45,819 bases of DNA. It comes from Bacteroidia bacterium (lineage in GTDB: Bacteria; Bacteroidota; Bacteroidia; Bacteroidales; VadinHA17). Of this stretch, positions 37,196-37,501 are shown piece by piece (positions within the stretch are counted from its first letter, which is position 1; each line of letters begins with the position of its first letter). Below the pieces are notes generated by a model. It did no database searches, was not told where the DNA came from, and worked only from the letters and a program-made list of their open reading frames with translations. The translations under genes were made by a program, and so were the position numbers. The stretch spans positions 1 through 45,819 of the forward strand of contig JAPLDX010000018.1 of the NCBI GenBank assembly GCA_026391215.1, given 5' to 3'.

Positions 37196-37308
37196 TTTTA
37201 TTAAGAAGGGCGGAGAGAATAGGCTCTGCGAAACCCTGGCAACCAACCCCGAGTACTCGGGGGAACGGTGCCAAAACCTAATCCCGGAAAAGCCGGGAGA
37301 TGATAAAA
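37196..37308 (+). ncRNA. SAM-I (S-box) riboswitch aptamer
   Basis: P1 TTTTATTA/TGATAAAA; P2 GGG-CGGAGAG..CTCT-GCGAAA-CCC; loop TAGG pairing with CCTA as the pseudoknot; P3 TGGCAACC..GGTGCCA; P4 TCCCGG/CCGGGA. Upstream of met genes. Confidence 0.9.
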
Positions 37309-37323
37309 ATAAACACGGAAACA

Positions 37324-37392
37324 ATGAAGCTATTTCATCTGACCCGAAACAATCTTACGATGCAGCTCATGCCTATGGGCATGCGCCGGTAA
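37324..37392 (+). CDS. Putative Met-rich leader peptide MKLFHLTRNNLTMQLMPMGMRR (22 aa)
   Basis: Hand translation. A-rich initiation context; four Met codons within codons 13-20; lies between the riboswitch and metY. Confidence 0.6.
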   Translation: MKLFHLTRNNLTMQLMPMGMRR

Positions 37393-37501
37393 GGATCCTG
37401 ATTTGGGAATAATCAATTTTAATTCAATTGCCGGATCAATGCAATGACAGGATTATTATACCTGTCTGCAGAAGAAGTTATATAAATTAAGGAATACTAA
37501 A

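Follow-up and report, generated by a model that had tools for sequence, protein, structure and literature searches.

What does a short open reading frame (ORF) that ends in a cluster of methionine codons do directly behind a riboswitch, at the head of a methionine operon? This question is raised by a 45.8 kb stretch of DNA (contig JAPLDX010000018.1, hereafter the window) within the 3.39 Mb assembly of an uncultured Bacteroidales bacterium, in which the genes metY-metX-hom-metH-metF are preceded by an S-adenosylmethionine (SAM) riboswitch aptamer of the SAM-I family and by a 22-codon ORF with four Met codons near its stop. All coordinates are window positions on the + strand. The answer favoured here, with a probability of roughly 0.58, is that the leader of the met operon consists of two sensors in series, SAM-I and a Met-sensing leader ORF that would act in an attenuation-like manner. 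The leader is real and conserved, and it is probably two-input. A sequence-only reading of the window had already suggested such two-input control; the part of it that concerns a conserved Met ORF, usually coupled to SAM-I and also found alone, holds, and translation, stalling and regulation are steps that we infer.

In the favoured model, the SAM-I aptamer would sense SAM, and the 22-codon ORF would be translated, with the Met codons near its stop making the progress of the ribosome depend on charged elongator tRNA-Met. Upon SAM binding, P1 would close beside the A-rich stretch that precedes the start codon, and the leader would be translated less. A leader that is untranslated or quickly finished would leave the operon off, and a ribosome held at the Met codons would keep it on. 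The output could be RNA refolding with termination, it could be Rho, or it could be another step. Everything from translation and stalling to P1 gating and the switch logic is conditional in what follows. The elements on which the model builds are:

37195..37309, + strand: SAM-I riboswitch aptamer, RF00162 (cmscan 74.6 bits, E 8.4e-16, model positions 1-108 of 108)
37310..37323, + strand: A-rich linker from the P1 3' strand to the leader start codon, TAAACACGGAAACA
37324..37392, + strand: leader ORF, 22 codons plus stop, encoding MKLFHLTRNNLTMQLMPMGMRR, with Met codons at 37360, 37369, 37375 and 37381
37354..37393, + strand: hairpin over codons 11-22 and the stop (minimum free energy (MFE) folds, RNAalifold), with the core CATGCC-TATG-GGCATG at 37368-37383

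The aptamer match scores well above the gathering score of RF00162 (74.6 versus 44.4 bits) and covers the full four-helix model. SAM-I is the sole Rfam family matched in the window, and the match is the single one to SAM-I in the assembly. It sits in the 5' leader of metY-metX-hom-metH-metF, as is expected for the family. The match at 37195-37309 reads as a complete SAM-I aptamer, and SAM binding is predicted for it. Of a classical SAM-I expression platform, no terminator-like site was called on the + strand between 36800 and 37700. In place of a terminator or a sequestered Shine-Dalgarno sequence, an ORF starts 14 nt after P1.

The leader ORF begins with ATG at 37324, 14 nt past the P1 3' strand, and ends with TAA at 37390-37392. 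In the peptide, Met occupies codons 13, 16, 18 and 20, so that four fall in the stretch 13-20; two Arg codons and the stop come next. The sequence-only reading had described an ORF just after P1, four Met codons in an eight-codon stretch near the stop, a position upstream of metY-metX-hom-metH-metF, and three ATGs within a hairpin, and these descriptions were found to be accurate: the 14 nt gap is seen in the sequence and the Rfam match, the downstream genes carry the expected Pfam domains, and the inverted repeat CATGCC-TATG-GGCATG (37368-37383) contains three of the leader ATGs. A program-made ORF list gives the frame as 37300-37392, starting from an in-frame ATG inside the P1 3' strand. This ATG (37300-37302) would yield a 30-aa product (MIKINTET...) and is in frame in some relatives only. 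Because only some relatives share it, ATG 37324 is taken as the conserved start; ATG 37300 is probably not the conserved start, and could be usable when P1 is open. Pfam and NCBIfam returned nothing for the 22-aa and 30-aa peptides, and an Rfam scan of 37300-37520 with E up to 10 gave three chance-level matches and no family.

Conservation was first seen within the genus. A DNA search of 24 same-genus genomes recovered the leader in 19, and the five genomes without a match are 70-96% complete. In all, 19 leaders were extracted, counting that of the window. In every one, an ORF of 20-23 codons starts from an ATG at the corresponding position and is free of indels. The conserved in-frame Met-rich upstream ORF (uORF) for which the sequence-only reading had called in related leaders is thus kept in 19/19 genus leaders and in many families, and the contrary outcome that it had named did not appear. 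Over codons 2-12 of the 19 leaders, the non-consensus fraction at codon positions 1/2/3 is 0.187/0.148/0.368, and codon pairs that differ by a single base are synonymous in 345 of 752 cases (46%) in frame versus 134/667 (20%) and 104/647 (16%) in the other frames. The same third-position and synonymous pattern is present in 76 distinct sequences. By these measures, codons 2-12 carry the signature of a translated frame.

This three-base periodicity tells against the idea that the region is an untranslated structured RNA, be it an unusual SAM-I platform or a protein-binding site, in which the open frame is incidental. That idea draws on an invariant core, CCTATGNGCATG, whose variable N changes the residue to C, G, D or R, and on the conserved boxes and hairpins around this core. 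It is at odds with the open frame and start codon kept in 19/19 genus leaders, and with the failure of 37300-37520 to match any Rfam family at E up to 10. Together with the counts given below for the order and for the motif scan, it is regarded as improbable.

In two genomes of the genus, the leader ORF occurs without the aptamer. In L020 (genome G012), the leader ORF and metY are present and the aptamer is absent; in L021 (G018), a twentieth genome of the genus, an aptamer-less leader precedes a gene that reads like hom. A second sensor working on its own is supported because the Met-rich ORF is kept even without the aptamer. In both L020 and L021, the 5' hairpin is followed by the A-rich stretch ahead of the leader start, and the aptamer that would stand between them is cleanly absent. 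In L005, the leader precedes a gene that reads like metH, not metY.

Since a probe made from the motif would be circular, SAM-I itself was used as the search probe for an unbiased sample of the order. In 151 genomes, about one per family, 54 SAM-I aptamers were found in 47 genomes. The criterion was fixed before counting: an ATG-initiated ORF of 15-50 codons that starts 0-20 nt past the aptamer and has at least two Met in its last eight codons. Such an ORF follows 16 of the 54 aptamers, in 16 genomes of different families (16/47 SAM-I genomes), and its start codon lies 1-14 nt past the aptamer in 16/16 cases. An ORF of this size, irrespective of Met, follows 32/54 aptamers versus 575 of 5465 control positions (10.5%), which again counts against an incidental frame in a structured RNA. 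Two or more Met in the last eight codons occur in 16/32 aptamer-adjacent ORFs versus 21/1323 (1.6%) other short ORFs from the same loci. The Met tails (MDMRGMRM, SMRMRCMR, PMRMR, SMCMR, IMCM etc.) stand on otherwise unrelated peptides. The feature shared between families is the Met tail itself, because the N-terminal parts are unrelated.

As a control outside the order, 70 of at least 173 aptamers in a phylum-wide sample were used, namely the 30 best-scoring and 40 from the class's other orders, and a Met-tailed ORF by the same definition was found at 0/70. The Met tail reads as an order-specific feature in these samples and not as a general by-product of SAM-I leaders. The sampled genomes are kin, so binomial figures overstate the significance; the contrast of 16/54 versus 0/70 is independent of them. 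Three loci from the class's other orders (L236, L264, L266) have ORFs that start 8-9 nt after SAM-I, upstream of metY-like genes. Their tails, which fall outside the definition of a Met tail, are Cys-rich (…YMCCCCR, …CCMCICCPCC) or carry SMRMRMPMS further from the stop, and these ORFs may be related sulfur-amino-acid leaders.

The samples of the order also bear on how the aptamer could act on the ORF. In four other genomes of the order (loci L154, L163, L164 and L182), the start codon of metH lies 12-21 nt past the aptamer and there is no leader ORF. The aptamer presumably acts on initiation in these four, because there is no room for a terminator or another platform. Gating of leader initiation by P1, which the sequence-only reading had proposed, is suggested for the window from its geometry, by analogy with these four loci, and would agree with the 1-14 nt spacing in the 16 Met-tailed leaders. 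In the window, the A's of the P1 3' strand lie at -15 to -19 relative to the leader AUG. Bacteroidales and Bacteroidota mostly initiate without Shine-Dalgarno pairing. An anti-P1 helix between AGATGA (37298-37303) and TCATCT (37334-37339) is predicted as well and was not relied on; TCATCT is kept in aptamer-less leaders too.

The breadth of the leader family was assessed by a scan for ATGCNNNNNATGCCTATGNGCATG in one genome per species, covering 185,579 species. At least 119 stretches matched, with about 17 chance matches expected by our own arithmetic. Among the 119 matches listed, 100 have a stop within six codons of the motif. Seven of those (L042, L072, L087, L090, L095, L100, L117) were removed by hand: an upstream start, an aptamer and a Met gene are all lacking in them, and the ones with titles shown come from other phyla. 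This leaves 93 leader-like loci among the matches listed, nearly all titled Bacteroidales, Bacteroidia or Bacteroidota. Their ORFs are 21 to 39 codons long (22, 28, 31, 34, 36 and 39 among them), and the N-terminal parts differ wholly between the length forms. An open frame with a start codon, kept at several lengths in 93 listed loci, is a further point against an untranslated structured RNA. A second match to the motif in the genome of the window (C11:9619-9633, one mismatch) lies inside a 416-aa ORF in another frame and was set aside as chance.

Searching with the window aptamer (blastn) found an aptamer in 77 of the 93 listed leaders and none in 14; two have too little upstream sequence, as at least 150 nt were required for calling a leader aptamer-less. 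An Rfam scan of the 14 aptamer-less leaders and L020 gave no family, and five aptamer-bearing controls were all recovered. Some of the aptamer-less leaders start with TTG or GTG. The first downstream gene of the listed leaders is metY-like in 71 cases, aspartokinase-like in 10, metH-like in five, hom in one, HcyBio in one, and other or too short in three. These genes were sorted by N-terminal motifs, and Pfam confirmed one or two examples per class, bar a 49-residue fragment. In the matches listed, the leader ORF appears to be linked exclusively to Met-pathway genes. The distance from the leader stop to the gene start is about 95-130 nt in 70 distinct relatives, which were selected in that range. 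One aptamer-bearing leader, L066 (760-960), has its Met codons out of frame with the start codon. It is read as an assembly error because its metY is frameshifted as well, and the anomaly probably combines such an error with mis-binning, the source being a long-read metagenome-assembled genome titled beta proteobacterium.

The genomic setting also weighs on the possibility that the ORF product, a small peptide rich in Met and Cys, has an independent function such as metal binding. The tail is indeed rich in Met and Cys, and one family shows selection at the amino-acid level. Such a peptide would hardly be expected always in the 5' leader of Met-pathway genes, with an aptamer before it in 77 of the 91 listed leaders that have enough upstream sequence. 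Between the Met codons, the residue is not fixed (C, G, D, R, S), and Pfam and NCBIfam have no match. This explanation is considered very improbable.

The sequence-only reading had cautioned that some of the Met richness could be a by-product of structure. In the window, the hairpin does account for three ATGs, since CATG is self-complementary, so that placing a Met codon in one arm creates an ATG in the opposite arm. Across the order, the Met-tail segments of the 16 leaders are no more stable than dinucleotide shuffles (mean z = -0.72; 1/16 below -2), the window segment included (z = -1.08), and several Met tails form no hairpin. The hairpin was rejected as the cause of the Met richness on these folds. 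We conclude, from comparison of the leaders, that the Met codons are selected as such and that in the lineage of the window the hairpin was built upon them. The caution stands for the window, whose codons 13-22 are nucleotide-constrained, and does not extend to the other families, which have no unusually stable hairpin.

The same evidence bears on a simpler account, in which the ORF is a mere expression platform of the riboswitch: SAM would control the uORF, translation of the uORF as such would set operon expression (through ribosome passage, coupling or shielding from Rho), and the Met codons would have no sensing role and would stem from CATG-type palindromes. Riboswitch-controlled uORFs are known, as in the B12 riboswitch and uPPE2 of Mycobacterium tuberculosis (PMC12713380). 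The start codon in the window adjoins P1, and the nucleotide constraint on codons 13-22 would be expected under this account. Met tails that recur in sequence-unrelated families without a stable hairpin would not be, nor would their enrichment (16/32 versus 1.6%), nor the retention of the Met tail without an aptamer in 14 of the 93 listed leaders and in L020. A platform of this kind is an unlikely explanation.

The remaining features of the locus are:

37123..37153, + strand: promoter-like site, TTTG (37123-37126), 19 nt and TATATTTG (37146-37153); a generic promoter scan flags 37123-37151
37161..37197, + strand: 5' hairpin directly upstream of P1, AAATCAAATATTCC pairing with GGGTGTTTGGTTT (RNAalifold)
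37400..37437, + strand: post-ORF hairpin, GATTTGG pairing with CCGGATC (MFE); contains the conserved TGATTTG box
37440..37470, + strand: last hairpin before metY, TGCA-GACAGG ... CCTGTC-TGCA (MFE), without a U-tract behind it
37502..38806, + strand: metY-like gene of the O-acetylhomoserine sulfhydrylase family, first of the operon (Pfam Cys_Met_Meta_PP, E 4.6e-127)
38806-39825, + strand: metX-like gene (Pfam Abhydrolase_1, an alpha/beta hydrolase; named from fold family and context only)
39832-41034, + strand: hom (Pfam Homoserine_dh)
41195-42325, + strand: metH, first ORF (Pfam S-methyl_trans, the homocysteine-binding domain)
42356-44836, + strand: metH, second ORF (Pfam Pterin_bind, B12-binding and Met_synt_B12)
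44796-45800, + strand: metF (Pfam MTHFR)

The leader stop (37392) and the metY start (37502) are 109 nt apart. Methionine synthase is split in two ORFs, 30 nt apart, the first with the homocysteine-binding domain and the second with the pterin-binding, B12-binding and activation domains. Upstream, between cysS and the met promoter (36960-37085), lie two inverted copies of a G/C-rich hairpin element, CCCCCTTCTCTGCTGAAGCAAAGAAGGGGG and its reverse complement. In L009, L010, L012 and L018, insertions of similar CCCCC...GGGGG elements lengthen the spacer from the leader ORF to metY. TTTG and TAnnTTTG are what we take to be the Bacteroides-type promoter consensus, and a TAnnTTTG box is present upstream in 91 distinct leaders. 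The 5' hairpin is predicted in 30/30 aligned full leaders with 14 pairs (RNAalifold), with one-sided changes only and no compensatory change, and it is retained in aptamer-less leaders.

At the predicted 5' end of the transcript, the box CAAATCA (37162-37168) is complementary to TGATTTG (37399-37405), a few bases past the leader stop. The predicted duplex energy is -6.97 kcal/mol versus -4.70 and -4.36 kcal/mol for controls (91 distinct leaders, whose kinship makes a p-value an overstatement). Which segment of the 5' leader is complementary differs between lineages; L010 and L018, for instance, have ATTCCTTCC matching GGAAGGAAT.

Many relatives have three CCGG boxes, at the ORF end, about 50 nt further on, and after a hairpin followed by TATTTGTAAAATTT, which suggests a classical choice between 2:3 and 3:4 pairing. 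The window's own subgroup has neither the third CCGG box nor a U-tract. RNAalifold on 29 relatives recovered only the in-ORF hairpin (11 pairs), which corresponds to the 1:2 hairpin of such a scheme and in which one pair shows compensatory changes (GC 20, UA 3, 5 broken or non-standard). Placing a ribosome at Met13 or Met16 in 23 of the 29 relatives lowered the last helix from a mean probability of 0.52 to 0.32-0.35 and raised the 2:3 pairing to 0.10-0.23, a modest and uneven trend with a clear switch in some sequences only. In MFE folds with the same kind of masking, only L099 of four relatives switched. The region of the last hairpin has a mean z of -1.13 in 61 relatives, with 12/61 below -2.

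In most leaders, 0-3 codons separate the Met codons from the stop, and C exceeds G in the 80 nt past the stop in 11/15 order-level leaders and 37/61 close relatives, a weak excess. By analogy with known uORFs, a Rho-type output, in which a stalled ribosome shields a loading site, would fit the position of the invariant Met codons.

The nearness of the Met codons to the stop and the C-over-G excess in the order-level leaders also speak for an arrest peptide, whose conserved tail NNF[IT]MP[LM]MPMCM, found in many families, would stall the ribosome near the stop upon free Met or SAM in the tunnel and so shield a Rho site. The peptides tnaC and speFL act in this manner (PMC12360218), and the 22-codon family shows selection at the amino-acid level on codons 2-12. 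If it is the ligand that causes stalling, the expected polarity does not suit a biosynthetic operon. Moreover, the N-terminal sequences are unrelated between families, the 36-codon family has no periodicity, and the C-over-G excess is weak (37/61 close relatives). An arrest peptide of this kind is rated as quite unlikely. It also enters a bolder version of the favoured reading, held only tentatively and considered unlikely as a whole, in which a ribosome relay replaces the usual platform: SAM-I would gate a leader ORF that is a free-standing Met sensor, the first Met-specific attenuator, and the nascent tail NNF[IT]MPLMPMCM would be an arrest sequence that tunes the stall.

Several points weigh against two sensors in series. 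Variation over codons 13-22 of the genus leaders reverses the pattern of codons 2-12 (0.179/0.095/0.089 at positions 1/2/3), and with position 3 the least variable (0.089), these codons are constrained at the nucleotide level too. Met18 and Met20, which are invariant in the genus, lie in the hairpin loop and the 3' arm; Met13 is changed to Leu or Thr in 4/19 genus leaders and Met16 to Leu or Ser in 3/19. The 36-codon leader family shows neither periodicity nor a synonymous excess (n=6). As for the output, no intrinsic terminator was found between the ORF and metY in the window, the tails behind the last hairpin in relatives are not U-tracts (3-5 T in 8 nt), a classical 1:2 / 2:3 / 3:4 switch was not reproduced generally in relatives, and the 2:3 pairing is unavailable to leaders with AGG at codon 22. 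A search of sequencing runs for 37100-37900 listed no RNA run; two runs of unspecified kind share 0.20-0.25 of its words. In addition, a shortage of Met touches the initiator tRNA as well, a complication for any Met attenuator. The leader is most likely to be classed as leader-peptide attenuator-like, yet the terminator that belongs to that class is missing in the window.

To our knowledge, methionine is the sole common biosynthetic amino acid without a textbook leader-peptide attenuator. The attenuators trpL, hisL, leuL, thrL, pheL and ilv share with the window a short leader ORF of a biosynthetic operon, end-product codons near the stop and an overlapping hairpin. Unlike the trpL/hisL type, the codons here are for Met, the window has no U-tract terminator, and an aptamer lies directly before the ORF. 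Two-input control of Met genes also occurs in Bacillus clausii, where SAM-I and adenosylcobalamin riboswitches stand in tandem before metE; there, two RNA aptamers are involved and no ORF. In Arabidopsis, the CGS1 nascent peptide responds to SAM, so ribosome stalling likewise takes part in the control of Met biosynthesis, from inside a eukaryotic coding region. The Bacteroid-trp motif is a Trp-codon leader. The mgtA leader of Salmonella was reportedly described by Park et al. in 2010 as sensing two disparate signals.

Bacteroid-trp (RF01692) resembles the window leader in that it belongs to the same phylum and precedes an operon for amino-acid biosynthesis; it is listed among the cis-regulatory candidates of Bacteroidetes (PMC2864571). 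It differs in having no riboswitch partner, and RF01692 has no match in the window. The Salmonella mgtA/mgtL leader (and corA/corL) also reads a ligand together with translation of a uORF with specific codons (proline), and the output of mgtL is Rho-dependent termination (PMC12360218); ligand, RNA fold and codons differ. In tnaC and speFL, a ribosome held at or next to the stop of a short uORF controls the downstream operon by shielding a Rho utilization (Rut) site (PMC12360218). There, a free ligand in the tunnel is sensed and the operons are catabolic or encode decarboxylases, whereas here the Met codons are the likely signal and the C-over-G excess is only weak. The B12 riboswitch relay of M. 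tuberculosis (ppe2/uPPE2, and the uORF of the metE leader) is alike in that a riboswitch controls a uORF that controls a downstream gene (PMC12713380). In ppe2, reinitiation is served by an AUGA in which the stop of the uORF overlaps the start of the gene; at the window locus, the two neither overlap nor abut, being 109 nt apart, and end-product codons are enriched.

Full-text searches found neither a Met-codon leader peptide nor a SAM riboswitch followed by one, with subscription journals and supplements outside their scope. The sequence-only reading had known of no riboswitch/Met-attenuator hybrid, and none was found in the searchable full texts either. In their accessible parts, one source reports new leader peptides, none of them for Met (PMC2965389), and another gives His, Leu, Thr, Trp, Ile/Val and Phe as the known attenuator specificities (PMC3766115). 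Bacteroid-trp is listed along with a motif named Downstream-peptide (PMC2864571). Small ORFs are described in long 5' untranslated regions of Bacteroides thetaiotaomicron, none linked to Met in the part available (PMC7366714), uORF-dependent Rho attenuators have been tabulated (PMC12360218), and riboswitch-controlled uORFs have been reported in M. tuberculosis (PMC12713380).

Riboswitch action in Bacteroidota is poorly understood, and a conserved Met-codon leader placed at a constant small spacing behind SAM-I, and present without SAM-I at other loci, would bear on this problem as well as on the missing Met attenuator. It offers a concrete and testable model for riboswitch output in the order, and the versions with and without an aptamer in one genus are natural controls. 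If the bolder relay version were true, the leader would integrate SAM, Met-tRNA and perhaps also free Met, and the module could come and go as a whole, as is seen from the aptamer-less leaders of the same genus. If the two sensors in series are real, the leader would serve as a natural switch with two inputs, telling the supply of an amino acid, read as charged tRNA, apart from that of its main derivative, SAM.

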